A model generated the notes under the pieces. It saw only the letters and a program-made list of their open reading frames with translations. It was not told the origin of the DNA and did no database searches. 64,000 bases of DNA from a virus, in IMG/VR virus record IMGVR_UViG_3300045988_167652. One strand, written 5' to 3'. This document shows positions 1 to 61,495 of the stretch, in pieces. The first letter of the stretch is position 1. Each line of letters starts with the position of its first letter. Made by a program: the position numbers and the translations under genes.

Positions 1-1
1 T

Positions 2-289
2 AAAGATGGTAAATTGATAGCTGACATGGAATATTTCTTCTATAATAATCGTACTGGTGGAGCATAGCATCATTATCCTAAAATGTTTGAATCAACTTTG
101 ATGGTTGATCCTTCTCATGAATTTGATATTCTTGACATTGGTTATTATCAATCTGGTGAAGGTATTAATTCTGACAGGTCTGAAGTTGTTCTTACTATAG
201 TAATGGATGAGACAGCTAAACCTAATTTAAGTGATGATGTAAAAACAGGTATTAATACTGTTCTCCCTGCCGATAAACAATTACCGTGA
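2..289 (+). CDS. C-terminal part of a late (virion-module) protein; 5' end outside window; TAG read as sense
   Basis: Frame 2 is open from nt 2. The only interruption is TAG at 65-67. It ends at TGA 287-289, followed directly by TAA, and a strong hairpin terminator follows. Identity (capsid-related?) cannot be decided from this fragment. Confidence 0.6.
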
Positions 290-317
290 TAATTAATTTT
301 AACTAAGTAAAGTATTT

Positions 318-354
318 AAGGATAGTAGATTTAATTCTGCTATCCTTATTTTTG
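318..354 (+). terminator. Rho-independent terminator after the first late gene
   Basis: 8-bp stem AAGGATAG (318-325) / CTATCCTT (340-347), followed by ATTTTTG. Confidence 0.7.
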
Positions 355-470
355 TATTTAATAATAAATAAAAATAACATATAAATTAATATAGTATGAT
401 ACACTTTAAATAGTTACAAATAACTCCTGATAATAAGAAAGTTATTATTGAAGCATCCATATCTTAGTCT

Positions 471-980
471 ATGCCTTTTAAAGGATTTTATATAGATGAA
501 ATATTTATAGAACCATATCAAAACTTTACAGACACTCAAACTATGAGTAATAACAAAACTCCTTTTTCTTTAAAAATACACAAAGAAAAGAAGATAAAAC
601 AAGTTAGATTAGAATTGACAAGTATAGATTTTACTAATTACTCCATTAAAAAAGGTGATTTATTATTTGTATATGTAAGAGTAAAATTCATTAAAGAAGA
701 TGCTGGGAATGTTATTCCTACATGTACTTAGGATAAAGAAGTTACTATAGGAGTAGCTTATAATAAATATGATATATACCATAAGATTATAAGCTATATT
801 AAAGAACTTGATTGTTGTGAAGTGCCTAAACATTTTATTAATTGGTATCTTAGATGGAAAGCCATAGAAATAGCTGAAAAAACTTGTAATTATTCTTCTT
901 TAGTAGAATTATGGAAGAAGTTTTCAAGAAGTCCTTTAAAAGGAAATAAGTTAAATTCAAATTGTGGATGTAATGGATAA
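471..980 (+). CDS. Hypothetical late protein (169 codons), one in-frame TAG
   Basis: ATG at 471. Track ORF 471..731 stops at TAG 729-731. The same frame stays open and protein-like to TAA 978-980, with no TAA/TGA in between (read codon by codon). Confidence 0.6.
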
Positions 981-1035
981 TCAAATATTTAACTCTTTAG
1001 ATTAGTACTTTAAGACCTTATCGAATTATGGTTAT

Positions 1036-1218
1036 ATGAGTTATGACCATACTTATGATATGATGCTTATGATTATTGTTCAAGATATTATTACTAACTT
1101 TGCATGTATAATAACTTAGGAAGACTATCAAATGATGAGTTCTTTACTTGAGTGTAAATATGGAACTTCCTGTTTAATGCCTTATCCTGAGTTTAGAAAA
1201 TGTAATAAAACAAAATAA
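1036..1218 (+). CDS. Small hypothetical protein (60 codons), one in-frame TAG
   Basis: ATG 1036, TAG at 1117-1119, TAA 1216-1218. It fills the gap between neighbouring genes. Short, so weakly supported. Confidence 0.35.
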
Positions 1219-1225
1219 TAATATC

Positions 1226-1909
1226 ATGACTTACGGAGAAGCTGTTTATATGATTCTTGATCAATTGAAACTAACATCCGATGATGCTAATTTTAATGAA
1301 AATCATGTTATATTCTTACTTAATAAGTATAGAGCTTTAGCTATTAAAGAAGAATATGAAAGAACTAAAAAGGAACTTGATGAATCAAATAAACAATTAT
1401 TATGTTTAGATTTAATTGAAGTTCCGGCTATTTCAGGAGAAGTATGTGAAGAAGGAACTTATCTTAGAAGCGTAAATAAACTTCCTAAAATTTTAAATCT
1501 TCATCATAATGATATTCAAGTTACTATTATGGATTATTTTAATAGTAACATATCATATGTTTCAGTAGATAGATTTAGATGGGTAGGACATAATAAATGG
1601 CTAAAAAATATTATTTATGCTACTATAGCTCCTGATAATTATGTTTATTTAAAATCTGATAATCCACAGTTTCTTTATCTTGAAAAAATAAAATTATCAG
1701 CCATATTTGAAGACCCTGAAAAAGTACAAGATTTATTATGTGATAAAGAAAATTTTGATACTATATGTGATATACTCGAAAGAGATTTTCCTGTAGAAAT
1801 GGCATTAGTTCCTTCCATACTTGAAAGAGTAAGAAGAGAACTTTATCAATCTTTATATAATAAAGAAGATGAAAATAATAATGCAAAAGATGATTTAGCT
1901 GAAAGATAA
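1226..1909 (+). CDS. Virion-module protein of unknown function (227 aa), TAG-free
   Basis: Intact standard-code ORF ending in TAA, located in the structural block. The N-terminus (ILDQLKLTSDDANFNENHVIFLLNKYRALAIKEEY) resembles small podovirus structural/adaptor proteins by eye only. Confidence 0.7.
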   Translation: MTYGEAVYMILDQLKLTSDDANFNENHVIFLLNKYRALAIKEEYERTKKELDESNKQLLCLDLIEVPAISGEVCEEGTYLRSVNKLPKILNLHHNDIQVTIMDYFNSNISYVSVDRFRWVGHNKWLKNIIYATIAPDNYVYLKSDNPQFLYLEKIKLSAIFEDPEKVQDLLCDKENFDTICDILERDFPVEMALVPSILERVRRELYQSLYNKEDENNNAKDDLAER

Positions 1910-1954
1910 ATTAAAATATAAACTAAAAGACAGTATAGATAATATAGTACAAAT

Positions 1955-2677
1955 ATGGATGGAAATAAGGTAGGGTTTGGGGGGTATGTGGAAATAAGGC
2001 CTAATTGTAATGACATTAAATAGGAAAACAATAGTAATATTATTACAAAAAGAAAAAGAGGAAGACCAAGAAAAGGTGAAGAAGTTATAAAGAAATCAAA
2101 GAGAGGAAGGCATAAAAAAGCAGGTAGAAAAAGAAAGAAAAAACTAAGTAAATATGTAATAGTTAATCATAAAAGAATACTTAGAACTACTTATAATAAA
2201 CTCTTTGTAGAACCTGTAAAACAAACTAAACTTGGTAGATATCATAAAGTACTATATGCTTATCATTATTTTAGATATTGTAGAAAAAACTGTAGAGAAA
2301 AATATAACAGAGGAAATTCAATAAGTGAAAAAGAATTTTATAAACTTTTTAGTAGAGCTATTGAATTAATGACTGAAAGTTTATGTTAGTATCAATATCT
2401 TACCATACCTTATTTAGGAGAAATATCTATAAAACATAATAATAAAATCACTTATAATGGTAAGTATAAAAAATGTATCAATTATCCTAAAACAGTGGAT
2501 AGATTTTAGAAAACAGGAGAGAAGAAAGTAATATATTCCTATATAAAAAGAGATTATAAGATATATTTTAAATGTGGTACAAGACTATATGACAAACTAA
2601 AATTTAAACCTTCAAGATTATTGAAAGATAAAATCGACGAATATAATGAAACACTAAAAAATGAAATTAATATATAA
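1955..2677 (+). CDS. HU/IHF-like DNA-binding protein with a basic AT-hook-like N-terminal region (240 codons, 3 TAG)
   Basis: ATG 1955 is preceded by an in-frame TAA at 1940. TAGs lie at 2021 and near 2387 and 2507; the gene ends at TAA 2675-2677. It contains KRKRGRPRKG (a GRP AT-hook core). The C-terminal half (IPYLGEISIKHNNK...YKIYFKCGTRLYDKL) follows the HU/IHF beta-arm pattern. Confidence 0.5.
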
Positions 2678-2685
2678 TACATACT

Positions 2686-3345
2686 ATGGCTAATATAAGA
2701 GTTATTTTAGATAAATTATCCAGACATCCATTACTAAAGAGATTATCTTTAGATGCTGTAATTGATTATACAGTAGAATTCATGGAAAAAACAAGGGTAC
2801 TTAAAGATTTACAAGAAAAAGAAACTGATCTTGAAGTAAATAGTTATGTAGCATAGTTACCTTGTGATTTCTTTAAAATAAAAAGCATACATTATAATAA
2901 TTATGAAATGCTTCCTTCAACTTCTATAAGAATAAAAGATAAAAATGTTATTCCTACTTATAAAGTAGTAAACAGAAAACTATAGACTTCTATAGAAGAA
3001 GGAAATGTTACTTTAGAATATTATGCTATAGCAACAGACAAAGATGATTTACCTGTTATTCCTGAAAACTCTTTTTTTCAAAAGACACTGTATAGTTATA
3101 TAAAGAAAGAGGAATTTTCAATTCTTTATGATTTAGGTGAAATAAGAAAAGATGTATATGAAGATGCTTGTTAGAAATATGCTTGGGAAGTTGGTTAGTA
3201 TCAGAGTTCACAGCATGAATTAAATGATGGAACTATGTAGAATATAGCTAATATTCAAGGAACAGTTATTCCTGATAAATATAATTTCCATAAGGGTTAT
3301 GGAAATATAAACAGATCATAGAAATTAGTAATACATAATACATAA
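2686..3345 (+). CDS. Virion-module protein (219 codons, several TAG)
   Basis: ATG 2686; frame 1 is interrupted only by TAG and ends at TAA 3343-3345. The translation is protein-like (MANIRVILDKLSRHPLLKRLSLDAVIDYTVEFMEK...). Confidence 0.6.
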
Positions 3346-3395
3346 GACAACTATGAACCTACCCAACAAACTTACACATTTAAATTATTAATACT

Positions 3396-6300
3396 ATGTT
3401 AAAACAATAGCAATATATTATAAGAGGAATGCAAAGAGATGCTTCTCCAAGTAAATTTAATAAAGAATTTGCTTATGAGAATCGTAATATCAGGATTACA
3501 TGTAATGATGATAATACACTATTTTCATGTACTAATGAAAAAGGGCATTTACCTCTTACTTTACTTAATAAAACTCACGGGTGGACTACTTAGCAACATT
3601 ATCTTCCAGGTAAATGTATAGGACAAAATGTATTGAATAACTATCTTACCTTATTTACAAAAGAATATAATACGGATAGAATATACAGATTACACATGGA
3701 AAATGATATAATGTATTATTATTTTTTATTTGAAGGTAATTTAGGATTTGATGAAAACTATCCTATTGAAACTGTAGGAGTATATGAATCTAAAGATATA
3801 TAGAAAGTATATTTTGTAGATGGTAAAAATCAGGCAAGAATGATTAATATTTCAAATTCTGCTATACAAAAACATAATACAATAAGGGAAAATAATCCTA
3901 AAGGAAGTATGCTTAATTTTGTTCCTTTCTTAGAACTTAATGAACAAATTAAAGTTGAAAAAGTATATGGTTCAGGACATTTTTAGTCAGGAACTATATA
4001 GTATGCTTTTTCTTATTATAATCTTTATGGATAGGAAAGTAATATATTTCATGTAACTCCTATATATTATATTACTCATCCTGAAAGAGGTGCATCACCA
4101 GATGAAATATGTAATTGTGTATTTAAAATAGATATAAAAAATCCTGATAGGAGATTTGATTTTTTAAATATTTATTCAATTCATAGGACTGCTTACAATG
4201 GTTAGCCAGTAGTTAAAAATGTAGGTCAAATATCTGTAAAGAATGCTGTAAATACTTTTTATGATACGGGTAAAACAGGTATGTTAGTTGATCCTACTTA
4301 TTTATTATATGCTGGAGGAGAAGAATTAATTCCCTCAACTTTTGCTTATAAAGATGGTACTTTATTTATGGGGAATATACATCTTAAAAGAAAGTTTATA
4401 GATTCAAATGTTAAGAAACAACTTAAATCATATTTAAATGAAATATCTTACAATACATAGAATGAATTACATTATGTATATAATAAATATGAAGTATTGA
4501 AGTAGAGCAACACAAATAGTTCTTTATTTTCACTTAACCTTAATTCAAGATAGATTAAACATTTTAAATATCAAGAAGCAGTAAGATTAGGATTATAGTT
4601 TTAGCATAAATCAGGTAAATGGAGTGATGTAGTACATATAGGAGATTATATTATTAAAGCACCTATAAAAACTAATTATGAAAAGATAGACATACAAATA
4701 CCAGAAATAAAATATAATAAATATACAAATACGTAGTGGTTAAAAGATAATGATTATGTTAAAGTAAGAGCTGTAGTATCTTTTCCTGAAGAATAGTCAA
4801 GATTAGTATTTACTCAAGGAGTACTTAATCCTACTATTTTTAATGCTTAGGACAGATATTTAAATACTTGTTTTTCATAGTCAAGTCCTTTCTTTAGACC
4901 TTTTCCCTCATTTAAAGAGTTTGACTTTAAAAAAATAAAAAGATTTAATTTAGACTTAACTAATTTAGATAGTATAGAAGGATATATAGGAAAAATTGAT
5001 GGGTCAGCTAAAAACAGAAAAAGTGTTCATGGATTTTATTCGGAGAGTGACGATGATTTTAGAAATACTTTAATAGAATTAAATTCATTTGGAAATTATC
5101 ATATAGAAAATAATGAAATAAGTTCACTTAATTTTGAGACTAATGTATCTGAAGGATGTAATTATAATAATTATACTTAGGATTTAGCTACTTATGGAAG
5201 TCATATTCAGTTTAGACATAATGGAGAATTATATCCTAATTATAAAAGAGGATGTGAAATTCAAAATATGTACAACAAACATATCTATGAACATCATGTA
5301 TTTGATATAAAGAATACTAATTTTGATAATGATTATTTTGAAGATGCTGGAAGAAGATTTATTGTACAAACATCAGAAAACTGTTATCTGTATGATGTAA
5401 AGAATAAAAAAAAAGAATTAATAGATGAGTTTATACAAAAAAGATCACATAATTATTATGTAGATTCATCTATTATTACTATGAACTCTCCTGAAATTGA
5501 TTTTAATAATAACTATAAATCAGGAACTTTTGAAGATTTAAATCTTAGAATAGTGGGTTATGTACCTTTAACAAGTAATAATTCCGATAGTTATATTGAT
5601 TTAAAAGGCACTCCCATGAATGTATAGAACACGGGATTACTTCCCTTTAATGTTAATTCTGAAAATATTAATATGATGGGATGGAAAATGAAGGCCACTT
5701 CATTAGAATATCACGATAGATTATTTAATATAGGAACTAATTATGTAAGTAAGAATAGAAGAAGATTTGTAGAAATATATCATTGGAATAATAAATTAAC
5801 TAAAAGATGGATCAATGATAATGGTACAGCCAAACCATTCAAACGTAGGAATATAAGATTTGCAAGTGGTGATGATTATTTAAAAAGAGAGGCAGTACCT
5901 ATACCTAAACAAGCTTTTGATTTTAATCCTATATTCTTTACTTATAATTCAAACAGTCCTTATTATGGTAATGCTATTTATAGATAGAGATCACCTCTTA
6001 CAGGAAGTAAGATTATTTTGTTTAATAGAGAAAATGGGGTATATACATTAACCGATGTATTATTTCCTTCAGATGACTTTGGAACAGTAGTAAATTATAT
6101 TAATTCACAAGCATTCAGTAATGCTATCAGTGTTCCTAATAGTAATTGGATAGAATATGATCCTAATCCATAGGAAGGAGGAGGTGATGGTAATCTTGCT
6201 GCATTTCAAGCTCAAGTAGAAACTACTGTAGGAGTAATACTTCTTCCTGATGATGATTCCGGATGGAACAGTAAAAAAGAAAATGATACTAATAAAGAAG

Positions 6301-9044
6301 AAATCGATTTAAGATTTATGTTTCCTGTGTATCCTTTTCATTCAAATTCTTCCCTACTAAATGATATGAGAAATAAGGGAGAAGCACACTCTTTTCTTAA
6401 TAGTAAAATATTAGCTAATGCAAGAAGATCATCAAATACAGCATATTTTAACTATGAATATATTAATAATAAAGGAAAACATTTATGTGATTTACCTGTA
6501 ATAGATAATCAGTTATGGAATGATGAAGGACAAGTTTTACTTAAACTAAAAAGTCCTAATGATATAAAAAACAAATATAATTGGTTAATCTATAAAGGTA
6601 ATGTAGATACAGTCAGTGTAATAGGCTCTGATAATTCAGCAGATTATGTGGGATATGGAACAAGTGATATTATTTAGTAGATAGATGATTATGTGGAAGG
6701 AAGTACAGATAAAGGAGATTTATCTCATGTACTTTATAGACCATTAAACGATGTAGCTATACAGGATAGCAGATGGAATTTAAGAGATGGTTATCATTTT
6801 AAAGCTATTGAAGGTAGATTATTCCCTATAAAAGGTAGGTATCCTTTATGTATATCAAAGAGATATTTAGAATTTTCTACTAATATATTGAGATCAGAAG
6901 ACCCATAGATTAATGATTCTTATTCAGATAATTCATTTCAAAACAGTATTATTAAAAGTCAGTCATCTATTCTTGAAACATTGGCTTCAGTAAGGGTTAA
7001 TAAAAGATGGGGTAATAATGGTAGGAATGGTGGTGATATATATGCTAAAAGAAGTGCTCAGTATTGTTATACAGATGGTGTAGGAAGAACACCACATTTA
7101 AATTTAGGAGACGGTTTAATATCAAATATTTTATATAGTAATAAACCCGTACAGATTAAATATAAATCAAATTCTCATATGGTATCCGTATTAGATACTA
7201 AAGAACATAAACAATTTACTCTTCCTTCAATTATAAATAATACAAATGAGGTATCCGTATGGTCTGATGAAAGTATAAAATTCGGTACTCATTTAGTTGC
7301 TAATTATCCTGAAGACATTGAAAACAGTATAACTAATTTCTTTACTTTTTGGGATGATAAATATAAAGGAATAGATAAAAAATATATTAATGTTTCTTAG
7401 GCTATTAATGGAACTTCAGAATTAGCCGATCCTTCTTTAGGTTATTCAATTACTGATGTAAAAAATAATTTTAATGGAGAAGAATGGGAATTTGATCATA
7501 TAAGAACTATTGGTTATGGTTATTTATGGATGGGTGAATATTATAGACACCCTCCACATAAACTATCAAATTTATTTGGTGGAGATAGTGAAGAAGCATT
7601 AGCCAATAATAAATGGTATGTTGCAGGAGACAGTGAAAATATTAAAGACGGATTAATAGAATGTACTTTTAAAGAGGGAGATACTTATTATCAAAGATAT
7701 GATTGTTTAAAGACTGTTCCACAAAGTGAAGATGATCAGAATAAGATAGTGGAAATATTATCTTTTATGGTAGAAACAAGAGTTAATATTGATGGTAGAT
7801 ATGATAAAAACAAACATACAACAAAGAATACAATAGTTAGAAACACTAACTTTAACTTAATGAATTCTGCATATAATCAGCAAGATAATTTCTTTCCTGT
7901 ATTTTATCATAATAGTAATTTATATGATACTTCATATTTTCCTTCTTAGCTTATAATTTCAAAAACTAAAAATCCAAGTGAACTTGTAGACACATGGTGT
8001 AATATAACCTCAGCTAATACTTTAGATTTACTGGGAGATAAAGGAAATATTAAAGCTATTAGAAAGTTTGGTAATTCAATACTTGCTTTTCAAGATAGAG
8101 CTATAGCTCATATATTATTTAATGAAAGAGTTCAAATACCTGTTAGTGATGGTGTACCTGTAGAAATAAGTAATGGTGGAAAGTTACAGGGATATAGATA
8201 TATTAGTGATAAAGTAGGTACATCTAATAAATGGTCTATTAAAGATACTTCTAAAGGTATTTATTTTATGGATAATATGAACAAATCTTTATGTAGATAT
8301 ACTAACACCATAGAAAATTTATCGGAAATAAAAGGATTTGAAAGTTATATGAACTCTTTATATAAAGGTAATCATAGACATAATAAATCATGGATACCTT
8401 TTAATGGATAGCCTAATACTTTTATCACTTTTTATGACAGTATATTAGGAGATATATACTTTCAAAAAGAAGATGAATCATTATGTTTTAGTGAATAGAT
8501 GGATAGTTTTATGACTTTCTTTGATTATAAAGAAGTGGCTTGGATGGGTAATATATCGGATAATTTAATAGCTATAAAAAATTTTGAAGACAGAGTATAG
8601 TTATATAATTGTCATAAGGATAACTATTGTAGTTTCTTCAAAGAATGGAATTATGATACTAATACTTATATAGAAGATAATCATGATTTTTCAGTTTGTA
8701 TATTAGCTAATCCTGATATGCCTTATGATAAAGTATTCGATACTTTAGAGTGGAGAGCAGACAGTTTTAATGAGTAGAATGAACTAATAAATAATGAAAC
8801 ATTTAATACTATTATAATAGAAAATGAATATCAAAAAGCCGAATCTATATTATAGTATAAACCTTATGGTAAATCAAATCTTTAGAAGAAATTCAGAGTG
8901 TGGGGAGCTACTATACCAAGAAAAAACTATATGGAAAGAATAAGAAATACTTGGGCATATATTACTTTAAAACATAAGTATACTTTAGGCTACCCTAATA
9001 AGAAAATAGAATTACATGATATTGTTTTATCATATACTGTATAA
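3396..9044 (+). CDS. Very large tail structural protein (1,882 codons) with many TAG sense codons
   Basis: I checked frame 0 codon by codon over 3396-5267 and found 17 TAG and no TAA/TGA. Track ORFs at 5268, 5673, 6318, 6693, 6981 and 7530 are all in frame 0 and joined only by TAG. The gene ends at TAA 9042-9044. N-terminal RGMQRDASPSKFNKEFAYENRNIRI and C-terminal KFRVWGATIPRKNYMERIRNTWAYITL resemble large podovirus tail proteins (recognised by eye, not searched). Confidence 0.75.
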
Positions 9045-9066
9045 TAACTTATAATAGATTACCACT

Positions 9067-11115
9067 ATGAAAAAACTAAATAAAGGTAAGAACATAAAAA
9101 ACATAAAAGATAATTTTCATAATAACCAAAACAGTTTTAAGTTTGGTGGAATAGCTAATGTGGGAGTACAAGCTACTGGAGATATTATGACTGGAACTAA
9201 TGGTAGTTTTGCTGAAACAAAAGGATATGAAGATTAGTTTAATCAAGAATTAAATAATATAAGAAGTCAATCATTAAATAACCTTGAATTTAATAGTACT
9301 TCAGATATTATGAATTATAATTTATCTCCCGTAAGTTATAATGAACTTGATTCTATTAGTAACAATAAATTCTTTAAAGATTATATAGCTAATGGTATTA
9401 AAGGGGCTTAGGTAGGCTCAGCAGCTGGTCCTTGGGGAGCATTAATAGGAGCTGGAGTAGCATAGATTAAAGGAGGATTATTTAATTGGTATAATAGAAA
9501 CAGAAATAGAAGATTCAATGATAAATTAGCAAGTGAAGCTAATTATATTAATCAGTTAAATCGTAAAGTATATGATAGAGAAATACAAGATTTTAAAATA
9601 AATCAAAGTATGAAAGAATTACTTAATATAGCAGCTATGGGAGGAAAATTAGATATAAAAGATAAAGATATGAATAAAGAAAATAAGTTACCTGATGATT
9701 TTAGTAATGGTGTAACTGTTATTAAAAATGGTGGAACACATGAAAATAATCCTTTAGGAGGAGTACCTTAGGGAATAGGTGAAAATGGCAAGTAGAATGT
9801 AGTAGAAGAAGGAGAAGTAAAGTATAATGATTATATATTCAGTAATAGAATAGTTGCTGATAAACTCCTTCTTAAATAGTTAGGACTAACTGATAAATAT
9901 GAAGATTCTACCTATGCTTACATAGCTGATAAACTATCAAAAGAAAGTAATGAAAGACCTAATGATCCTATTAGTATAAGAGGACTTGAAAATACTTTAG
10001 GTAAATTAAGGGTAGCTTAGGAAATGTAGAAATTAAAAATTGAAGCTAAAGAAAAAGGTATTACTGTACAACAATTAATACAGGAAAAAGTTAATCAAGC
10101 AATGGAATAGAGTAATACCGATCAAAACAATGTTAATCAAACTAATGAAGATAATACTGAAAATCAAAACACATTTGCTACTGGTGGAGATACTACTAAA
10201 GGATTAAAATATGATCCTAATTTAGGATTTATGATTCCCGAAATTACTAAAGAAGCTCCTTATATTAATAGAAAACCTTATTATCTTCCTGTAAATTATA
10301 GTAACATAAATTCATTAGTACCGAACCAACTTACAACAAATCTCCCAACCTCCCAACCTTCAAAATTATCAGATTTAAATAGTGCTTTACAAACTTATGT
10401 AAATAAGAATAGTAGTAATAAATTAAATACTGTGACAAATAATAATAAAGTTAATGTAGGAGATTTAACTTCATTACTTAGGTATGCTCCTGTATTAGCA
10501 AGTATGAATGCTTTAGTTTCTTAGTAGAAACCTAATTATAAATATGCTAAAATGGCAGGAGAAGCAGGTACTACCATATCTCCTAAAATTAATAGTACTT
10601 ATAGTCCTTTCAAAGCATTAAGTACTTATGAACCTATGAATAAAATATTAGCTAATAGTTAGGCAACTGATAGAAATATTATAAATACAAGTGGAGGAAA
10701 TAGATATGCAGCTACAGCAGGATTACTTTCAAATGCTTATAATACTAATAGAGCTATAGGAGATGTATATAATAAAGCTGAGGAATATAATTATAATAGA
10801 TTATTAGATGTTATACAAAGAAATAATACTTTGAAACAACACGAGTCAAATCTTAATTTTTATGCAGATTAGTATAATTCAAAATTATAGCAGAGTAGAG
10901 ATATGGCTAAATTAGGTATTATGCAGTAGATTGATGATGCTTATAATTAGGCAAAAACAGCTAATCTAAATAACTTAACTCAGAATCTGTATAATATAGG
11001 AGAAGAAGCATATACTGCTAATCAAATAAAAAGTAATCCTGCTTTTTATTATGATTTGAATCCTTTTACAGGAACATAGAAATATAAGAAAAATAGAATT
11101 AAAGCAAGTAAATAA
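9067..11115 (+). CDS. Virion internal/ejection-type protein (682 codons), TAG as sense
   Basis: ATG 9067; frame 1 was read through to TAA 11113-11115 with only TAG interruptions. It includes track ORF 10231..10524. Features are a glycine-zipper segment (GSAAGPWGALIGAGVA) and the motif NGGTHENNPLGGVPQG. Confidence 0.65.
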
Positions 11116-11141
11116 TAATAATAGTATAATTATTGATTGAT

Positions 11142-13196: not shown

Positions 13197-13207
13197 AATA
13201 AGAAGCA

Positions 13208-18643: not shown

Positions 18644-18664
18644 TTATAAATTAAATATTATATT

Positions 18665-21600
18665 ATGGCACAATGTATAACCATAACTGATGAAGATTAT
18701 AATAAAATAGCTTCAATCTTTAGTAAATACAATTTGAACATATCTAAACTTACTGCTTAGAAGTTAGTAAGTATGATTATGACAGAAAAGAAAGAACTTT
18801 TTAATGGTAGTAATTTACCTTCAGAAAGAGAGTTACTTAACTTCTATTATAATCATAATGCTTTTCAAAAAGAAGTAATCCCTATTAAAGGCTACATAAA
18901 ACTAAATGAGCAGAAAGAAATAATGTAGCTGAGAGATACTAATACTTATGAAGCTATCAAGTATTTAGCTACTAAAGATTCTATGTATAAACCTTTATTT
19001 GAATTACTTTCAAAAGAATCTTTTAAAGATTATTTTTCAGCTATTGATTTTAATATTATATCTCCTGAAAGATATTCGGGATTTTATAATAATCCAAGAC
19101 ATAGAGGATTTGGATATGGTAGATATGAAGCAGTTTCATCTTATTCAAAAGGAGGTAACGGAATAATTACTATTAATGGTAATTATAGTTATTCATCTAT
19201 GGAAGGAATATATCATACTTTAGCTGAAGAAATTATACATGCAGCTACTGTAAATGCCCTTAATTGGGAAGAAAACGGTGAGATTAAAAAGGGATTTGAA
19301 TAGATTATTAAAGTATATAACAATTATTCAAAAGATAAATTCTTTAAGAGATTTGAAGGGGATAATTATGTAGAAGAATTTATAGCAGCCGTATTTCATC
19401 ATCCTGAAATTGCACAAAGATTAAATGAAATAAGAGATGAAAAGAGTAAAACATTTTGGGAAAAAATTAAAGATTATTTTAATAGAATCTTTAATAGTAT
19501 CTTTAAAAGAATGTCTGGAGAAAAAGTAAAAGATGATTCTTTACTTGCAAGATTTGGTTCAGGATTATAGTTTTTATTTGATAATATAGAAAATAAAGGT
19601 ATAGTAAAATTAACAGGTAAAACATATAATAAAAAGAAAGATGCTGCTGAAAATGCTATCGAAAGAATTAAAGAAGTTCTTTTGGAATATGGTATTAAGA
19701 ATAATCAAAATCAAAATAAAGCTATTATAAAAGAAGGGGATACTTATACTGCTAATGCTCATATTATATATGAAGAATTTATTAACAGTACATTCAATAA
19801 AACTGAAAAAGGTATTTATCCTTTATCATTCTTCTTAGGTAATCTGTCAAGAAAACAAATATTTAAAAATGTATTTGACTATGTGAATTTCCTTATAGGT
19901 AAAGAAGATGCTCTTTAGGATATATCCGAAGAACTTTCTTATGAAGAAAGATAGAATATGGCTACTGTATAGTCATTAATTTCTTCAGGAAGACTTTAGG
20001 GAGATACTCAAGATTTACTTTAGGCTTACAAATTTATTAATAGTATAAATAATTTAGATAGTATTTATACTCCTAAACAACAAAGACAAATCAGTAAGTC
20101 TATCTTTAGTATGTTTGAAAAGAAAGTTCAAGCTATTTTAGAAAGTGAGTTGGAAGAATATCAAAATAAAATAGATAATGCTGAAAAAGAAAAAGATAAA
20201 AAAAGATTTCAAAGAATCTATAATAAGTTATCTCCTGCAAATATAATTTAGTATAGAGGAGTAGACCCAATTCTTCAAAGTATTAAGAATGATTTAATAT
20301 CTGCATACAGTAAGAAAATGTATCTTATTGATTCTATAGGATCATATACTACAGATAAACAAGAAAGAGTAAGATTATACAAAGAAGCTATTTCCAAAGA
20401 AAATATTCAAGATACAGATATACCTGAATTTCTTAAAAGAATTATTCTTTACAACAAAGAAAACTATGAAAATATTATTAATAGCTTTGAAACATTAAAG
20501 TTATATACTTATCAAAATATTAAATACATCTATGGTGGAAATCTTAGAATAACTAATAATCCTATTAATGAATTGGATGAACAGGGTAAAGAAGATATTG
20601 ATAAAGAAACACAGACTAATGAATCTTTTAGAGTAAATTTTTTAACTGTTTCAGCTTATGATAATCTTACGGAAAAAGTAAGAAAACTATTATTTACTAT
20701 TCCTGAATATCGTTTTAATGGTATTACTTATGAACCTATGATTGATATGTTAGGTTATCCTTCACATATTAATTCAAGTATGGCTTATAAAGTAATTATT
20801 GATACAGTATATGATTCATATGATATGAATGATATGATGTTTAAACTTGAACAGTTATCAAATAGAAAAGACGGTAATTATTATTGGGTAAAATATATCA
20901 TTGATAAGTTAAATAATGATTAGGATTCATAGAAACAGTTCTATAAAAACTTTAGAAAAACATTATAGAATTATGTAGTTCAGACAGTAAAGAATGGAGT
21001 ATTAATAAGTCAATCTGCTAATAAATCTATCGGTGGTAAATTCAAGGCTTTAGATATACAAAATAATATAGTTACAGGATAGCAATTTGCTGGTGAAGAT
21101 ACTGTATATAATAGTGAAGGTATTATAGAAGTAGAAAAACTTGATAATATTTACTTAAAAGTAAATGAATTATTAAGTGATTACATACAATAGGGAGAAT
21201 CTGTAGAAGCATTATGGGAATTTTTAAATAATGAAGAGAATAGAAACAAACTTGAATTATGTTTTAAAGCTGTAGGAGTTTTAATAGATGTAGATCAGTT
21301 AACTTATAATCTACAACAACAATCTGATCCTTCAAAAGTATTTAGTGAAATACTTGAAAGACTTAGTCATATTACTAATAGTTCTTCCTATTATAATAAG
21401 AATAAAGATACTTTTGAACTAAATAAATTATGGGAAAATAATGTTGGGGCTTATACAAGAATAGCTCATTTAGTTATTGATTAGGAAGCTACATCATTTG
21501 ATCCTTCAGTAAGACAACAAAATAAAACTTACTATGGATATACTGAATCTTCTTATTTTGATTCAGTAATAAGAAATTTGAAGAATCTCTATAGAAACAC

Positions 21601-24600
21601 TGTTGAAAATAATAAAGGTATAAACTATCATCAAAGAGCGTTAGATTATATAAGTAAACATTTCCTGAATGTTCCTTTCTTTAGTATATAGAAAAATAAA
21701 AAACAATTCATTTTATCAAGATGGATTAGAGAACTAACTGAAAACAATGAAGAAGGCCAAGATTTAAGAGATAATTTAAAAATCAATACCATTATTTCAC
21801 ATAATAGGAAAGATTTTAGTGATCTGGATGATGTGGAAAGAGTATTATTATAGCTTGCTGAATATTTTAATAGTGGAAATAAAGATGAAGCTAAATATGC
21901 TAATTTTGTATTACCTGCATTAGGTGATGCCTCATAGCCAAGAAGTATTACATTTAAAAGAATAAATGATATTTAGCAGGGAGATAGATTAGTAACTACT
22001 AAAGAACAAGTAATTCAAGAATTAATTAATACGGTAATACAAGAAATTAATCGTATTAATCAGACTAATCAAATTGAAGGATTGGATATAGCATACTATA
22101 AAAATAATGCCGCTAAATTTGTATTTTTCCCACAGCTTAATAAAACCATAAAAGAAATATTATCAAAAGAAGAAATTGAATCTTTAGGACTTACTAAACA
22201 TCAAGATAAAACTGTACTTGAATTAAAAACTAAAGAGAAATCAACATTCTTAATTCAATTCTTTGATAATTACTTAACCAAAGGATATGAAAAATGGGAT
22301 AATACATAGAAAGAAAGAGGATTATATGATAGTCCTAAATTTCAAGCTATCAAACCTACTTTAGGAAACCTTGAAAATTTCTATTATAATTATGTATTTG
22401 CTTAGACATAGTTACCATAGTTACTGATAACTGATTTAGCATTTGTAAAAGACCCTATTGATTATCAAAAGAGATTAAAAGCTACTATTAATGGTACAAG
22501 TAGTTCAAATACTTCTCCTTATTTTTCCGATGAAGTAAACGAAGTAAAGAAAGATAATGAAATGGCTGTAATTACTCTTAGTGATGTTAAAGTAGATACT
22601 AATACTTTTCTTAATTCTACAGGAGTAATTAAAGCATTAAAGAGAAATCCTAAACTATCGGACATAGATATTAGAAATATATTAAGTAAATTTAAGGGTA
22701 TTACAGCTACTGATGGACAGTCTTTTGTTACTCTTGATTTTATTAAAAAGATAATGCAGTCTGATGGTGAATGGACTGATATGATGTAGCAAAGTTATGA
22801 TAATCTTGTATCAGGAAACTGGGATATGAATGACTTTGATTAGTTCTATCAGGCAAGAAAAGCTATGTATAATGGAACTAATGTTCATGAGTTTACTTTA
22901 AAAGATGGAACTAAAACTACTATTAGAGTTCCTTCTTATCATAAATATTCGGAATATGTTTTACTTGCAATGTATGGAGCATTTTCATAGACAGTACTTG
23001 GTGAAAACAGTTCTATGGCTGCTATTAATAAATTTATGGTTAAGAATAACATAGACTTGTGTATGTTTGAAAGTGCCGGTAAAACAGGTAATCAAAAAGT
23101 AGTGGATATTAGTGGGTTTGAAGAATTGTCAGAAGATGAAAAAGAAACATTCCTTAATGATAAAATCCTTAAAACTAATAAAATTAAATTAGTTAGTATG
23201 GATAATTATGGTATGTAGTAGTCAAATCCTGAACATTTATATGATAACCATAGAGAACTTAGTACATAGTTAAAAAGAGCTATTATAAGCAATATTCCTG
23301 AAGATGCGGAATTTACTTTACAGAATGGTCAAAAACTAAATAAACAACAGTTTGTAGAATTATATTATGCTACTTTATTATCGGAAAAAATAGATAATTA
23401 CACAGCTAATTATGATAAACTGACTGATATGAATGCTATGTCTAAAGAATTAATATCTTAGGCACTTAGTGATAAAGAATCTTCTATTGACGATATTAAA
23501 AAACTGACTTATAATCCTTCTACAGGAAATTTTGCTATTCCTGTAGGTGAACCTCTAAGTGGTTCAAAGTTTATGTCTAAGTATTGTTCGTTAGTAAGAA
23601 ATAAAGTTATTCCTAACAGTACTGAAGGAGGTTCAATTGTTTAGGTAAGTAATTTTGGATTTATAAAAGATAAAAACTTACAGGTAAAATATAAAGAAGG
23701 ACAAGACAAATCCATTGAAAATATAGAATATATAGGATGTTATATGCCTATGTATACTAAGAAATTATTTGAAAAATATATGGATGATGAAGGTAATGTA
23801 GATATAAATAAAATGCCTGATAATGTAAAAAAATTAGTAGGTTATCGTTTACCTTTTGAAGATTTTTATTCCTTACTTCCCCTTAAAATAATTGAATTTT
23901 TACCTGAATCTTCAGGTTCTTCAATTATAATGCCTGCCGAATTACTTGCATTAACAGGTTCTGACTTTGATATTGATAAATTATATTTAGTAGTACCTTA
24001 GTTAAATAATGAAGGAGATAGAGAAGAATATGAGATAAATATGAATGATTTACAAGGTAGTATTCTTACTATGACTAAAGGATAGAGAAATAACCTTTTA
24101 CTTGATTTAATCTATTCAAGAGCCACTCATCCTACTTCATTAGAAAGAATGCTTAATGGAGGTGAATTTGAAGATTTAAAAACTGCTTCATTACTTACTT
24201 AGATTCGTAAAATTCCTAATATAGATAATATATTAATGAAAAAATGGAATATAAGTAAGATATCTCATTTATATAGAAAATTATATTCTTTAGAACAGGA
24301 CGAATTAAAAAGTATATTAAATGAATATAAAGAACCTGTTGATTGGTTTGATCCTGAAACATTCATTTATTTTAATAACTTAAATCATGCAGCTGCTGTG
24401 GCTATTGCTACTTTTGCTAATGCTAAAAGTAATGCTCACTTGCTTCCTGAATTTATTCCTCATGAACCTTTAAGCATTAATATGGGTAAAGAAAAGATAG
24501 ATAAAGTACTATCAGAATCAAAAAACCCAAAAATGATTATTAAAACTAATGATGGAGAAGTACCTTATTGGTTTACTATTACTGAAACAGTGGATAAAAA

Positions 24601-27600
24601 CGGTAAAGTAGATTCAAAAACTCATATATTCAATGAGATTAATGTACCAGAATCTTTAGACATATCCAAATATAAAAATACAGTTCATGCACTTGCAGAA
24701 TTAATTTCAGCTGCTGTAGATGCTGTAAAAGACCCTGTATTGTCATTCTTAAATCTTACTAAAGAACTAAATATAATAGCTCCCATGCTTATTAGATTAG
24801 GTATGTCTGATAAAATGATGGGATTATTTATGACTTAGCCTGTTATTGAATATATCATTAAAAAAGCGTCCTCGAATAATAGATTAAGTATGAATCAAAT
24901 CATATAGAATGTATTATATGATTTAGATTCAAAGATAGCTCAAATTGAAAGTTAGAATCCATAGAATGATAATAGAAATGTATTTATGGATACTGAAAGT
25001 ATGATTGGACATACAGGTAAAACTAAAGAATTAGAATAGTTATTAGAGAATAATAATGAATAGGAAAATAATATATACCAAGAAGATAATTTAATAAATT
25101 CTTCGGATAATTTGTTCTTCTTAAAGAAATAGTTGAATGTATTATATGTATTTAAAAATATATATGCTAAAGCCAAAACATTAAATGAATATGCTGTAAC
25201 ACATAAACCCGATTCAAAAAGCTCTATGGCTAGAGGTTCTTTATTTGATAATATAGCTAAAAAAGTAAGAAAAGAAAACTTAGTAAAAGAGTTAGGTAAA
25301 CACTTTGCTAATATACCTATATTACAAGATACATTTAATAAAGATATAATTACACCACCCTCAAAAATTGCAGGTGATAATTATGGTAAATAGATGAAAA
25401 AGTATAAAGAATAGATGCTTAAATACTTTATGAATCAAGATTTACCACTTGTACAAATGGATTATACTTTAGGTATTCTTGCGCCTATTTACTTTAATAT
25501 AAATAGATTTCCACAGCTTAGAAAGCAATTTTCTTATATAGTAGATGAAATTAGTAAACAATCTAAAAATAATCTTCTTTCAAGACAGTATGCTGAACAG
25601 GTTTATAAAATGTATTATACATATTTACTTAGTGAACCTACTAATGGATTACTTGGAGGAAAAGAAATTAAACCTGCATTCTTAGATAAAACTTTAAATA
25701 CTTATGAAGATAAAAGACAGTATTATTTAAATGGATTTGTAAAGAATCTACAAGAATATAAAAGAGCTAAAATAAATAAACTTCCAGCTGATAGAAGAAA
25801 TGCAAGAAATTCATCTTTTATTAAATTATTAGCTCCTTATAATAAAGGTATAATATTAAAAGGATAGGGTACTGCAAGAGTAGATAAAAGAGATATGCTT
25901 AATGCTGATTGGGCAAATCTTATGAAAAGTGATGTTGAATTTGAAAGAAATTTAGCAAGGGATATATTTATCTATGAATTATTTAAGAATGGAGCTGGTT
26001 ATACTCCTAATGGTATATTACAATATGCTCCTATGGAAGTTATCAGTAGTATAGAAGGATATACTGATATAGCTTTAGATAATTCCATACTCGATAACAT
26101 AGAAAATGATGATACTTACGAAGAGTTCTTAAATATATATGTAAGAAATAATTTAAGGACATTTGCTTAGGTTATTCCTGAACATGAAAATCATTATTTT
26201 AAAGATGCAAACGGATATAAACCTACCTTAAACACTGAAAATTTATCCACTACTTTTTATAATAGTGAATATAAAACCAAATATATTTAGATAGGTTAGG
26301 GAAATAATGCCGTATTCTATAAACTAAATTATGATATTGATCCTTTTACAGTAGATATTATAGATAGAGGGTATGAAAAGATCACTCCTTTAAATATGTA
26401 GTATCAATATGGTAATCCTAATGCAGTAGCTATTGATAATACATTAAAACAAGCTGGATAGAGTTCTTTAAGTACTATGAATGAAGAAGAATTATCTATG
26501 CTTGCAGGTATGAATGATCCTTTTGAAGATGCTGATATGATGGAATAGATGGCTGCTATGCAGGCTATGGAAGATAAATTATTTAGAGAATAGAATAATA
26601 AACAGTAGGAAAATACAGAAGATACTAATATTAAAGAAGTAGAAGAAGTATCTAAATAGATAGATAATATCTTAGGTAATACTACTAAAGTAGTATCTAC
26701 ATTAGAAGAAATTGAAAAATTAAAAGAAATAAAAACAAAGAAAGTAACTTTAGAGATACAACCATTTATACAGGATGGTAAGGTATTCTTTAAAATTATT
26801 CCTGTACAAAGAGGTATATAGAACTCTGTATATTTTAATGTAAGATTAGGAGAACTTCAAAATGGTATTAGAGCAGCTGATAAATTAATGGAATTTGCTT
26901 CTCAGAATGATATTTCTGTAGAACAACAATTACAAAAGGATTTAAATGCTAATGGTACTGTTACCTTTATTAATGATACTTCAAGTAAGATAAAAGCTAT
27001 TGTTTAGATAGCTAAAGAAAGTAATCTCGAACAGTTTATTAATAGGTTAAGCGAAGAATTATCTCATGCTGCTATAGCCTTTTCAAGTAATGAAGCCTAT
27101 ATTAATGAAATTATTTCACCTCTTCAAAATGATATTGAAATGGTTAAAGAAATATTAGGAGATGAATATGATAATTATTATTAGATTTATAATGGTAATG
27201 AAAGATATTTAGCTCTTGAAGCATTAGGAAAAATAGTGGGTGAAGCTACAGGAGGATTAATATCTCAAGGAACAAATATCAAAGGAAGTGTAATAGGTAG
27301 AATAATGTCTATTATAAAAGATAAATTCAGAGGATTAAATGAAGAACAATTAGTTATTATTTCTTAGATATTTAAGGATGATTCTCCTATTGTAAGAGAT
27401 ATGATTAATAATTTATTAGGAGAAATTAATGGTACACTTGCTTCAGAAGTTATGAAAGATATTCCTATGTAGATGTATTAGCTTAATTAGAAAATAAGTC
27501 TACAAGAATAGAAACATAATATAGCTTTAAAAGCTATTAATGATTTAATTGATGCCGAAATAAAACGAATTAATATTATTAAAGTTACAAAATCAAGTGA

Positions 27601-30376
27601 TATTTAGGATACTTAGGAATTAAACAGGCTTATTAAAGCAAGAAACTCTTAGGAAACTGTTAAAGGTATTCATACAAGAATAAAAGAACTTAATAATGTT
27701 CTTAGAGGGCATTTATACAGATTAAAAGAGTTAATATAGAATCAGGATGAAAGGGATGAAATAAGTGCTAAATCTTTAAGAAATATGAGAGATACTTTAA
27801 TAGCCTATCAAAAACAAGTAGATATTATAAGAGAATTTGATATAGAACTTGAAGGATTAAGTGATGAAGAACAAATAGAAATAAATAATGAATTAAAAGA
27901 AATTATAGCTGATTGTGAAGAAGTTTTGAAACGTTCTTTTAATTACTGGAAAAAGATATCCAAAGCTAAATTTATGTCTTTTGTAGGTAAAATAGTTCCT
28001 GAAGGAGTAGTAAGAATGATGAATAAAATAGATGGTTCTACTAATACTTTAGAAGATTATGTATTTACAGCTAATAGGGATATTTCTTTTTATGATAGAT
28101 GGTTAAGAGCAGCTGGTGATAGTAGAGATTTTGTAATTAGATTATATGATGATATATTAAAAAGAGCTTAGATTAACAGAGTTCATAAATCTTAGGAATA
28201 TAAAAGAAAGATAACAGCTTTACAAATAGAACTTGAACAATCTACAGGTAGTTCAGATACTTCATGGATGTATGAAAAGAATGCTAAAGGAGAAATAATA
28301 GGATTTATTAGAGAACTTGATTATACTAAATATGAAAAAGAAAGAAAACAGGCTATATTAGATATTTATAGTAATACAGATGATCCTAAAACAGCATCGG
28401 ATTTAATTAATAAATGGGTAGTAGAACATACTGAATTGGATGAAAATAATATACAAAAACCTAAAAGATCGCTTTATGGTAATCCTATATTCGATAATTT
28501 ATCCGAAGGATAGAAAAAGTATTATAAATCCATTATAACCCTTAAAAAATTAATGGATGCAACTATGAAACTTGAACCTATTTAGTATTATAAACCTATT
28601 TACATTTCAAACACTATGACATAGAGATTAAAGAATACTAAGAGTGTTTAGGATGTAAAAGATATAATGAAGAGCTGGTATGATACTAATATAGGAATAA
28701 GAAAAGATGACACTGATTATAATAAAACAGTTGCCGTAATAAAAGATTTTGAAGGAAATGTGGTACAAACATTACCTAAATTCTTTACTTCTCCTTTAGA
28801 AAATCTTAAAGATGTTTCTACCGATGTTACTTCAGCTATGATAGCCTATGCTGATACAGCAGTTAATTTTGAAGTAATGGAAGAAGCTGTGGGATAGATG
28901 GAACTTGGTAGAATTGTTCTTAGAGACAGAAAGATTTCAGAAACAAAAGATGATAAAGAATTAGTAAATAAGATTAAACTTTCAGGTTATAATATCATTC
29001 AAAAAGTATTTAAGAAAACATCCAAATCTAATTTTGAAGCAAGATTAGATGACTTTATGGAAATGAATGTTTATAATCATTATTATAAGGATGAAGGTAA
29101 GGTAGGTTAGTTATTAAATACTTTAGGTACAGTTACAGCTATTAATGGTTTAGGAATTAATGCTATTGCAGGTATATCTAACTTATTTACTGGTGGAGCA
29201 ATGTTTAATATTGAAGCTCTTAGTAATAATCATTTTAAACCTAAACATGGTATAAAAGCAGATAATATTTTCTTTAAAAATTCATTTGCTTTAATAGGAG
29301 ATGCCGGCAAAAGAGTAAAAACATCAAAAATAGCTTTATTCCTTGAACATTTTGATGTTTATCAGGATTATACCGAAAACATAAAAAATAGTAATGTAGG
29401 AACTAAGAATTGGTTACTTAGAAATATTGGATTAGATTCTATGTTTATCTATAATAAATTAGGTGAAACTTGGTTATAGGCAAGAGTACCTTTAGCTTTA
29501 GCAGTAGCTACTGAATTAATAGATAAAAATGGAAATAAAATAAGTCTTTGGGATGCTTTAGAAGTAGTAGAAACTAAGAATGATGAAGGTAAAGTTATTT
29601 CTTCAAAACTTCAATTTAAAGATGAATATGAAGGATTAGATGGAAAAAAGCCTGATGAAATTATAGCTGAAGTTATGAGAAAAAGTAATAAAATCAATAA
29701 TAATTTGAATGGTATTTATCATAAACAAGATATATATGCAGCTTAGAAATATTCAGTTGTAAGAATGGGATTTATGTTTAGAAAATTCATATTACCCGCT
29801 CTTGAATATAGATATAAAGGACAGACTTATAACTTTGACTTAAATAAAACTACTGAAGGATTTTATCATACTATATGGAGACTTAGAAAAGACATTCTAA
29901 AGAATAGAACAAATTTACTTGTATTTTATAATAGTCTTGAAGATTATGAAAAGGCTAATATAAATAAAGCATCTATAGAAGTATTACAAGTATTTATGAT
30001 ATGGTTAGCTATAGGACTTATAGGTAAAATTGATGGTGATGATGATGATGATAAAGCTTATTTAGCAAGAATAACCGAATTACAATTAAGAAGACTTTAT
30101 ACTGAAACTTCAGTGTTTACTCCTTCTACAGGAATGATTAATGAAGGTCAAAGAATACTTAAATCACCCGCTGCTTCAGTTAATACATTAGATAATATGT
30201 TAGGATTACTTGAGCTTCTTGATCCAAGAAGTTATACTACTGAACTTAAATCAGGGAGGTATAAAAGACATTCAAGAGCTTATAGAGCTATTGACAGAAA
30301 TTTACCTTTTAAACGTCATATATATAACATAGTAAATCCTGAATTATTATTACCATTCTATAAACAAGAATATTAA
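18665..30376 (+). CDS. Giant virion protein (3,903 codons) containing a two-barrel RNA polymerase DxDxD signature; TAG as sense
   Basis: ATG 18665. All 17 track ORFs from 18983 to 29765 are in frame 2, and every gap I read contains only TAG. It ends at TAA 30374-30376. GSDFDIDK sits around 23957-23980, as expected for crAss-like virion RNAPs. Confidence 0.7.
23963..23977 (+). other. DFDID candidate catalytic metal-binding motif of the virion RNA polymerase
   Basis: The codons gac ttt gat att gat at 23963-23977 lie within ...LLALTGSDFDIDKLYLVVP. The DxDxD pattern is the signature of two-barrel RNAPs. Confidence 0.6.
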
Positions 30377-34579: not shown

Positions 34580-35020
34580 TTATTCACAATTCATTAATGC
34601 GTTATACATTCTATCTATTGCTTCTTTAGGGACTTTCCTATCTCTTCCTTCTATATTTTTCATAGCTTTTTCAGGTGTACACATAAGAAAACAGTACTCA
34701 ATTCTATAACCATTATCTAACGCTAACTTTTCAAGTTTCCTTCTTGTTTTTATATAACAATTAGTGTCATCAATGATTATAGTATTATCTCTTAATATAG
34801 CTTCTTGAATGGCTCTTAATTCAAGTTGTTTTACTAAAAATTCTTCTTCTTTAGTATATCTGTAATTAGGTTTGGTTTCCCTTATTTTATCTCTTGAAAT
34901 ATATTCATACTGTGGATTATTTTCAAGGATTTTATTAGCTGTAGTAGTCTTACCGCTACCTGGAATACCTACCATAACAATAAAGGTTCTTTCAAGATTA
35001 TTATATTTACTTATATCCAT
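34580..35020 (-). CDS. P-loop kinase-like protein (polynucleotide/nucleoside kinase-type)
   Basis: Walker A is VGIPGSGKTT, followed by ISRDKIR and IIDDTN motifs. I place the start at ATG 35020, 1 nt after the upstream TGA stop, rather than the track start at 35101, which would overlap the upstream gene by 80 nt. Confidence 0.6.
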   Translation of the reverse strand: MDISKYNNLERTFIVMVGIPGSGKTTTANKILENNPQYEYISRDKIRETKPNYRYTKEEEFLVKQLELRAIQEAILRDNTIIIDDTNCYIKTRRKLEKLALDNGYRIEYCFLMCTPEKAMKNIEGRDRKVPKEAIDRMYNALMNCE

Positions 35021-35021
35021 A

Positions 35022-37079: not shown

Positions 37080-37664
37080 TTATACAACTTCTATGTTAAT
37101 ATCAAAGTTACCCTTATAAGGTACATCTCTTGAAATAATATAATTATCCTTTTTAATAAGTCTTTTTACTCTTAAAGTAAATGCTTTTAAATCTTCAATA
37201 ATATCATCATCAAGATTTAGTGTATTAAGACTTTCAATTCCATTATCATAAAACCCTTTACAATCATCATTAGTAAGTTCTATAACTACTTTATATCCTT
37301 CTCTTTTAAGTATCCTGCTAATCCATTTTATTTGATCAGGTATTTTTCCATTATTATAGAAACATAATATAGAATTAATTAGGAAATCAATCTTTGATTG
37401 TACTGTATATATTATTTTAATTCCTAAATAACATTCATTACTATCACTTAGTGATATGGAATTATTTCTTAAATAAATTGTTTTTTCATCATAATAATTA
37501 TCATTTAAATTAGAATCTTTAAAGTCTAAAAGGCATTCTTCTATATACTCTTTAATAATTTTATTTAATATAGTTTTTCCCTCTTTCATAGTACTTACAA
37601 AAGAGTGGGTAGAAGAACTGTTTGTTTCAAATATATTATTTCTTGTTTTTACTTTAATATTCAT
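37080..37664 (-). CDS. Hypothetical protein with N-terminal IFETNSSSTH motif, paralog B
   Basis: The N-terminus MNIKVKTRNNIFETNSSSTHSF is shared with 36164..36634. Confidence 0.65.
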   Translation of the reverse strand: MNIKVKTRNNIFETNSSSTHSFVSTMKEGKTILNKIIKEYIEECLLDFKDSNLNDNYYDEKTIYLRNNSISLSDSNECYLGIKIIYTVQSKIDFLINSILCFYNNGKIPDQIKWISRILKREGYKVVIELTNDDCKGFYDNGIESLNTLNLDDDIIEDLKAFTLRVKRLIKKDNYIISRDVPYKGNFDINIEVV

Positions 37665-61451: not shown

Positions 61452-61495
61452 TATCGGATATTGTTCTATTGTTATGATAAACTACGAACTATAAG

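Follow-up and report, generated by a model that had tools for sequence, protein, structure and literature searches.

The plus-strand block at positions 1 to 30376 of the viral record IMGVR_UViG_3300045988_167652 from IMG/VR (a stretch of 64,000 nucleotides, the whole of which we call the window) encodes the virion proteins of a crAss-like phage and is rich in in-frame TAG codons. The best explanation for this, which we hold with high confidence on the basis of sequence comparisons, is that the virion block is written with UAG as a glutamine codon, that an amber suppressor tRNA encoded by the phage itself would be the reader of this codon, and that the recoding would serve as a lock on the late genes. 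An earlier note on this DNA had proposed TAG-to-glutamine recoding (genetic code 15) limited to the late module of a crAss-like gut phage, and this proposal is supported by homology, by codon swaps between strains, by the tRNA, and by an early block that is free of TAG. Judged by its genes, the phage belongs to the order Crassvirales, with Steigviridae as the nearest family. The signature virion genes of the order are present (crAss capsid, portal, TerL, ring, muzzle, and cargo proteins and a giant RNA polymerase with a DxDxD motif), and the Pfam families Crass_capsid, CrAss_Ring_1/2/3_4, crAss_MUZ, CARG1, and CARGO2 were found on proteins identical to those of the phage. The genome, assembled from many samples, has a size of about 92 kb, of which the window is about two thirds; the G+C content of the window is 25.3%.

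Stop-to-stop open reading frames (ORFs) were called on the plus strand of 1-30376 with only TAA and TGA as stops. This gave eleven contiguous frames, which from start to stop comprise 10,018 codons with 197 in-frame TAG, no TAA, and no TGA, and all eleven terminate at TAA or TGA. The gene ends listed in the earlier note (TGA at 287-289 and TAA at 978, 1216, 1907, 2675, 3343, 9042, 11113, 13194, 18641, and 30374) match these ORF calls exactly, and a recount of 3396-5267 returned the figures given there (624 codons, of which 17 are TAG and none is TAA or TGA). The peptide quoted there as an example of TAG sitting where glutamine fits, RLGLQFQHKSGKWS, lies at 4584, and both of its Q positions are TAG codons. 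The 17 plus-strand ORFs between 18983 and 29765 that had been assigned to one frame all start at 2 mod 3, and they are pieces of a single frame of 3,903 codons (18665-30376). A TAA or TGA hidden in the stitched frames would have spoken against the proposal, and there is none in the 10,018 codons. The two off-frames of these genes have TAA and TGA at a combined rate of 0.108 per codon, which gives a probability of about 10^-496 for 10,018 codons with neither. One could nevertheless take the TAGs for real stops, either in decayed and fragmented genes or as sequencing or assembly errors, as the block falls into short ORFs under code 11 and the JGI gene calls are fragmentary. We give this explanation practically no credence: to the lack of TAA and TGA is added that in-frame homology continues past the TAGs, that the same TAGs occur in at least 19 independent assemblies, and that a cognate suppressor tRNA is encoded. 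The TAG-rich genes themselves are present on at least 19 contigs from independent samples.

The earlier note had named a comparison of gene calls under codes 15 and 11 as a check. With TAG as sense, the coverage of 1-30376 by ORFs of at least 50 amino acids rises from 45% to 99%, and that by ORFs of at least 100 amino acids from 24% to 97%, whereas the coverage of the minus-strand block is hardly altered by the choice of code (94% versus 95%). The statement that the standard code would miss essentially the whole virion module was somewhat too strong, as the gene at 1226-1909 has no TAG and standard-code fragments still match crAss Pfam families. What stands is that under the default bacterial code about half of the 30-kb block is lost and the rest is left in fragments. 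Pipelines therefore need TAG-as-glutamine gene calling here, and some public ones already use it: the ENA and Logan contig gene calls for this phage read past TAG and give the muzzle protein a length of 1,882 amino acids, whereas the JGI calls are fragmented. The late block in the window contains 197 TAG, 194 CAA, and 68 CAG codons, so that TAG makes up 43% of the inferred glutamine codons, and this share is fairly even over most late genes (about 40-57%). When the nucleotide following TAG was compared with that following CAA or CAG, no special context was seen.

Which amino acid TAG encodes was addressed by two independent tests. In the first, TAG was translated as X, the proteins were aligned by tblastn to four standard-code relatives, and candidate residues were scored with substitution frequencies from the same alignments. 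The alignments to crAss001, cr85_1, cr126_1, and the bajarodcaudo virus, all of which use the standard code, cross up to 32 TAG positions each; proteins ending at the TAGs, which the earlier note had named as a refutation, are not what the alignments show. Among 423 aligned positions, the three residues most often found opposite TAG were glutamine (78), glutamate (50), and lysine (37), and in columns where at least three relatives agree, glutamine was the residue in 10 of 30. Glutamine is also the maximum-likelihood residue, with a log likelihood of -1181 compared to -1250 for lysine and -1258 for glutamate. The second test used TAG swaps between strains of the phage that are 94-96% identical in DNA. 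The partner codon was CAA or CAG at 21 of the 25 variable TAG sites upstream of and within the window, at 41 of the 51 in the window genes, and at 62 of 76 overall. Many of these strain differences are between TAG and CAA, which requires two base changes. As TAG exchanges mostly with CAA and CAG, even where two steps are needed, it behaves as a synonymous glutamine codon, and both sets of comparisons thus identify TAG as glutamine in the late block.

That TAG is a sense codon for a residue other than glutamine (lysine, glutamate, tryptophan, or pyrrolysine) appears very improbable to us. Glutamate and lysine are indeed the next commonest residues opposite TAG, but glutamine is ahead of lysine by 68 and of glutamate by 77 log-likelihood units, and CAA and CAG predominate among the strain-level swaps. 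Tryptophan and pyrrolysine come into consideration through the tRNA, the nearest annotated phage tRNA being a tRNA-Trp and the ARAGORN label for the gene being tRNA-Pyl. Tryptophan is found opposite TAG at only 1 of the 423 positions. The ARAGORN label follows from the anticodon alone, and we rejected it; the tRNA folds into an ordinary cloverleaf whose anticodon stem has 5 bp, unlike the atypical pylT, and no pyl genes (pylS, pylBCD) turned up in family searches of the window.

The lone tRNA inside the window is a tRNA-Met (CAU) at 61495-61570 on the minus strand, which is not a suppressor. The predicted suppressor tRNA, whose anticodon is CUA, maps about 2.3 kb to the right of the window, at about 66286-66358 (plus strand) when the coordinates are extended. 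It is known from contig k119_133082 (L012), which matches 11.9 kb at the window's left end with 100% identity and carries the gene at 7618-7690 on the minus strand of its own locus; a second tRNA-Met (CAU) was found on the same contig (66174-66246 in extended coordinates, plus strand). The tRNA(CUA) gene is located 31 nt upstream of the first plus-strand ORF and on the same strand; this ORF holds TAG, and the terminase and portal genes come after it. The tRNA scores 68 bits against the Rfam tRNA model. Its first 25 nt, which span the 5' acceptor strand and the D arm in full, agree at every position with those of two tRNA-Gln(UUG) genes on unrelated metagenome contigs. The pair U1-A72 and A73 are common to the tRNA-Gln genes that were compared, including one of a standard-code relative, and no tRNA with another anticodon in the comparison begins with U. 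Whole-sequence identity to other tRNAs is uninformative here, and only the acceptor and D-arm match and U1-A72 discriminate. By whole sequence, the nearest annotated phage tRNA carries a tRNA-Trp label (80.6% identity), which speaks against a glutamine tRNA; the glutamine identity thus rests on the acceptor and D-arm match together with the protein evidence. On these grounds the tRNA(CUA) appears to be of the tRNA-Gln type. All five pairs of its anticodon stem vary between strains but remain paired (AUUCU/AGAAU versus GCUGU/ACAGC), and such fully compensatory changes mark the gene as being under selection for function. The genome has only three tRNAs. The two with anticodon CAU, each of which may be an initiator, an elongator, or a tRNA-Ile2 precursor, stand one at the head of each divergent gene block.

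The recoded block extends beyond 1-30376: its start lies about 2.3 kb outside the window on the right-hand side (at about 66.3 kb), and from there it wraps around the circle to 30376. The genes outside the window for the terminase (13 TAG), the portal (14 TAG), the capsid, and a lysis cassette bear TAG as well. The replication or early block, with 36 genes at 30447-61451 on the minus strand, has a very different composition. It contains no TAG in 9,442 codons, and its genes end in TAA (29) or TGA (7), so that TAG terminates none of the 11 late and 36 early genes annotated (47 in all). The early genes include those for a family A DNA polymerase, a primase, helicases, an exonuclease, a Sak4-like annealing protein, a thymidylate synthase, and an endolysin-like peptidase. 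This distribution bears on the possibility that the host reads UAG as glutamine at all times, in which case there would be no switch upon infection and the phage tRNA would just add capacity. A constant assignment of UAG to glutamine should show in the 36 early genes, but there we count 188 CAA or CAG and not a single TAG. Moreover, the cultured relatives all infect Bacteroides, and Bacteroides use the standard code. Yutin et al. (PMC7886860) do raise host-encoded suppressors for phages that lack one of their own, whereas Borges et al. (bioRxiv 10.1101/2021.08.26.457843) find that the hosts of such phages use the standard code. We therefore leave only a slim chance to a host with a permanently altered code.

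In the mechanism that we favour, the glutamine-charging enzymes of the host would load the tRNA(CUA) with glutamine, and the charged tRNA would out-compete release factor 1 (RF1) at UAG. The replication genes could be translated on entry by the untouched host machinery, and the proteins for the virion, for packaging, and of the lysis cassette would be completed only after the suppressor has accumulated. Because the late proteins would need the suppressor and the early ones would not, the recoding would act as a translational lock on the late genes. Suppression would cost the phage nothing, since no phage gene ends in TAG, and it may cause read-through of host genes. Three late genes have no TAG: the Ring_2 gene (1226-1909), a 394-amino-acid gene before the capsid gene (2706-3890 on contig L006), and a 344-amino-acid gene after it (5531-6565 on the same contig); in their neighbours TAG makes up 25-75% of the glutamine codons. 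These three genes could be translated ahead of the code switch.

Several observations weigh against this mechanism or its strict form. As the tRNA(CUA) gene stands in front of the late block, the tRNA could be produced together with the late mRNAs and not before them. Searches of 30 minus-strand proteins against Pfam and PHROGs gave no release factor, aminoacyl-tRNA synthetase, or tRNA-modifying enzyme, which leaves the way in which RF1 is beaten without an explanation. The suppressor tRNA lies outside the window and is known from L012, which diverges from the window in a short stretch near 62.6-63.8 kb. Finally, the endolysin-like peptidase gene (37654-38538, minus strand; PHROG endolysin families, E = 1.6e-28) is part of the TAG-free, standard-code block and is at odds with a strict model that places every lysis gene under the lock. 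A TAG-recoded lysis cassette (DUF6549, DUF5675), separate from this gene, lies upstream of the window. Not every lysis-related gene sits behind the recoding lock.

The same coding could also serve another purpose. The suppressor may damage host proteins, including those for defence, by read-through, and the late TAGs would then be a tolerated by-product of the low G+C content. This purpose was proposed by Yutin et al. (PMC7886860), and it agrees with a genome G+C of 25%, with the even spread of TAG over most late genes instead of a concentration in lysis genes, and with the fact that TAG terminates no phage gene. On the other side, the total exclusion of TAG from the early genes is what a timing lock predicts, and drift alone would not hold 9,442 codons free of TAG beside a block in which TAG makes up 43% of the glutamine codons. 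We consider host damage in place of timing unlikely, but it is the alternative that deserves the most attention, and the two purposes do not exclude each other.

The lead most worth following, and possibly a new point, is a split suppressor tRNA in sister strains. In two contigs from independent samples (L014 and L027), an identical insert of 1,044 nt separates U35 from A36 in the anticodon of the tRNA(CUA) gene. The split allele (3338-4454 on L014, with the same allele on L027) is located outside the window, about 2.3 kb beyond its right-hand edge. Within the insert lies a gene for an HNH endonuclease (Pfam HNH, 21.7 bits; cut-off 21.4), and the boundaries of the insert are like those of group I introns, the 5' exon ending in U and the insert in G. 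The exons flanking the insert have a different, fully compensated anticodon stem, and an altered stem beside the insert fits the outcome of homing with co-conversion. Scanning the insert with Rfam, even at E values up to 10, gave no group I intron match, and no clean internal guide sequence of at least 6 nt was found in it, so that its nature as an intron is unproven. ARAGORN in intron mode places the splice point elsewhere and gives the anticodon CUU. We judged this solution less likely, as its boundaries end in A and not in U and G, and as the late genes of the strain are rich in TAG. Our tentative suggestion, which we would put somewhat short of probable, is that the insert is a self-splicing intron, that the switch in genetic code of this phage would then depend on RNA splicing, and that split genes may explain part of the "missing" suppressor tRNAs. 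A suppressor tRNA has been reported as missing in about 60% of TAG-recoded phages, and split genes could explain part of these because the split tRNA escapes both the Rfam tRNA model and ARAGORN when run in its default, intron-free mode. A literature search, which included a review on zeta crAss-like phages, returned no described case of a phage suppressor tRNA with an intron.

The late genes in the window all lie on the plus strand. The first, for the auxiliary capsid protein crAss_AuxCP (2-289; 1 TAG, ending in TGA), is represented by its 3' end, the remainder being cut off by the window start; the identical contig L006 holds the full gene of 308 amino acids (Pfam PF25650). Upstream of the window start, contigs with identical proteins carry the Pfam families Crass_capsid and Ring_3_4. 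The next genes are crAss_THA (396-980; 3 TAG, ending in TAA; PF25724), for which the tblastn alignment to crAss001 gp38 crosses TAGs, and crAss_THB (973-1218; 2 TAG, ending in TAA; PF25711 and tblastn). The gene for Ring protein 2 (CrAss_Ring_2, 1226-1909) is the sole late gene in the window with no TAG, and its product matches phrog_9863 and PF25702 and is 46-54% identical to its relatives. It is followed by a gene for a basic protein of 240 amino acids (1955-2677; 3 TAG), which has no family match and by synteny occupies the position of crAss001 gp42 (HU/IHF-like), and by the gene for Ring protein 1 or "tail tubular" protein (CrAss_Ring_1, 2686-3345; 6 TAG; PF24228 and tblastn). The muzzle or "stabilization" protein gene (3396-9044) has 1,882 codons with 31 TAG, the first already at codon 5. 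Its product matches PF25731, PF25729, and phrog_28748 (E = 4.9e-75), and by tblastn it is 35-42% identical to the "stabilization protein" of crAss001 (gp44), cr85_1, cr126_1, and other Crassvirales. The genes for cargo protein 1 (crAss_CARG1, 9067-11115; 17 TAG; PF25725) and cargo protein 2 (crAss_CARGO2, 11142-13196; 16 TAG; PF25712) were both also supported by tblastn. Then comes a gene of 1,811 codons for a homologue of crAss001 gp47, the "RNA-polymerase subunit" (13208-18643; 42 TAG; E = 7e-97 to gp47 of L001).

The last late gene, of 3,903 codons (18665-30376), has 76 TAG and ends in TAA at 30374, and by tblastn it joins homologues of crAss001 gp50 and gp49 in one frame. Residues 1236-2556 of its product correspond to gp50 and residues 2654-3901 to gp49, and the motif SDFDIDKLY at residue 1767 aligns with SDFDVDKLY of crAss001 gp50. 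A PHROGs search with the 3,903-amino-acid protein gave no family, and phmmer of its DFDID region against PDB sequences gave no match; the polymerase assignment is therefore based on the motif shared with crAss001 gp50 and on the homology to gp50 and gp49 of that phage. At the junction between the two parts (near 26400-26750) there is no start codon (ATG) nearby, and the poorly conserved linker contains four TAG. If suppression is incomplete, these could yield both short and fused products.

Two further domains were observed among the replication genes: a retropepsin-like aspartyl protease domain, Asp_protease_2 (41667-42212, minus strand; E = 4.6e-07), and an AAA_33/Zeta-toxin-like kinase domain (34580-35101, minus strand; E = 6.9e-20). 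Between the two divergent blocks, a stretch of about 4.5 kb (from 61600 to the window's end at 64000 and further to about 66170 in extended coordinates) contains small ORFs only. It is the most variable part between strains, with about 82-85% identity compared to 94-96% elsewhere, and it is probably an early or regulatory region.

Megablast of positions 1-20000 of the window against 50,697 deposited phage records gave no match, and relatives were therefore sought at the protein level. The identity of the portal protein to those of Steigviridae is 54-55% at most. Contig ODIS01000021 was not found mentioned in the supplements of Yutin et al. 2021 or in a wider literature search. Relatives with about 50% portal identity use different codes. 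One of them, with 30% G+C (L019, IMGVR_UViG_3300001528_000260), is TAG-recoded and has its own tRNA(CUA), whereas three with 35% G+C (L016, L017, and L018) use the standard code, and L016 has a tRNA-Gln(UUG). The contrast between L019 and L016 or L018 fits repeated code switches over short distances and a link with low G+C content.

The coding scheme itself is already well documented for crAss-like phages, as the earlier note had stated and as the literature confirms. Yutin et al. 2021 (PMC7886860) described the pattern for 243 crAss-like phages, with TAG as glutamine or TGA as tryptophan, mostly in late genes, and with suppressor tRNAs that are often carried. Borges et al. (bioRxiv 10.1101/2021.08.26.457843) found the same layout in crAss-like phages and proposed a control of late-gene and lysis timing. 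Peters et al. 2022 (PMC9523058) report that glutamine at TAG was validated by proteomics for two crAss-like phages. A phage-encoded suppressor tRNA(CUA) is common but not universal among code-15 phages. The phage described here shares with the recoded crAss-like phages (beta or Steigviridae-related, delta, and zeta) the crAss-like gene set, the low G+C content, and glutamine as the inferred residue, as well as TAG only in the structural and lysis module, a standard-code replication module on the other strand, and a tRNA(CUA) of its own. It differs from them in having no close deposited relative, only three tRNAs, no release factor found in family searches of the window, and the gp50 and gp49 homologues in one reading frame. 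As the lineage has no close deposited relative and both the mechanism and the phage group have already been described, we regard it as a new member and not as a new phenomenon.

Compared to crAss001 (Kehishuvirus primarius), the virion proteins are homologous and the order of gp36 to gp47 is collinear with 1-18643 of the window, but crAss001 uses the standard code throughout and has a G+C content of 34.5%. Its gp49 and gp50 are separate adjacent genes on the opposite strand, whereas they are fused in this phage. Suppressors of the supE type in E. coli have a tRNA-Gln body with the anticodon CUA and insert glutamine at UAG against RF1. They have U1-A72 in common with the phage tRNA(CUA), which carries A73, whereas the discriminator of E. 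coli tRNA-Gln is G73. The phage tRNA would serve about 200 codons in the window alone and is not a weak suppressor of rare mutations like those of the supE type. Among the known cases, this is a particularly clean two-code genome, in which TAG makes up 43% of the late glutamine codons and none of the early ones, no gene uses TAG as a terminator, and the suppressor heads the recoded block. It adds to them a Steigviridae-like lineage with low G+C content and three tRNAs and leaves the known mechanism unchanged.

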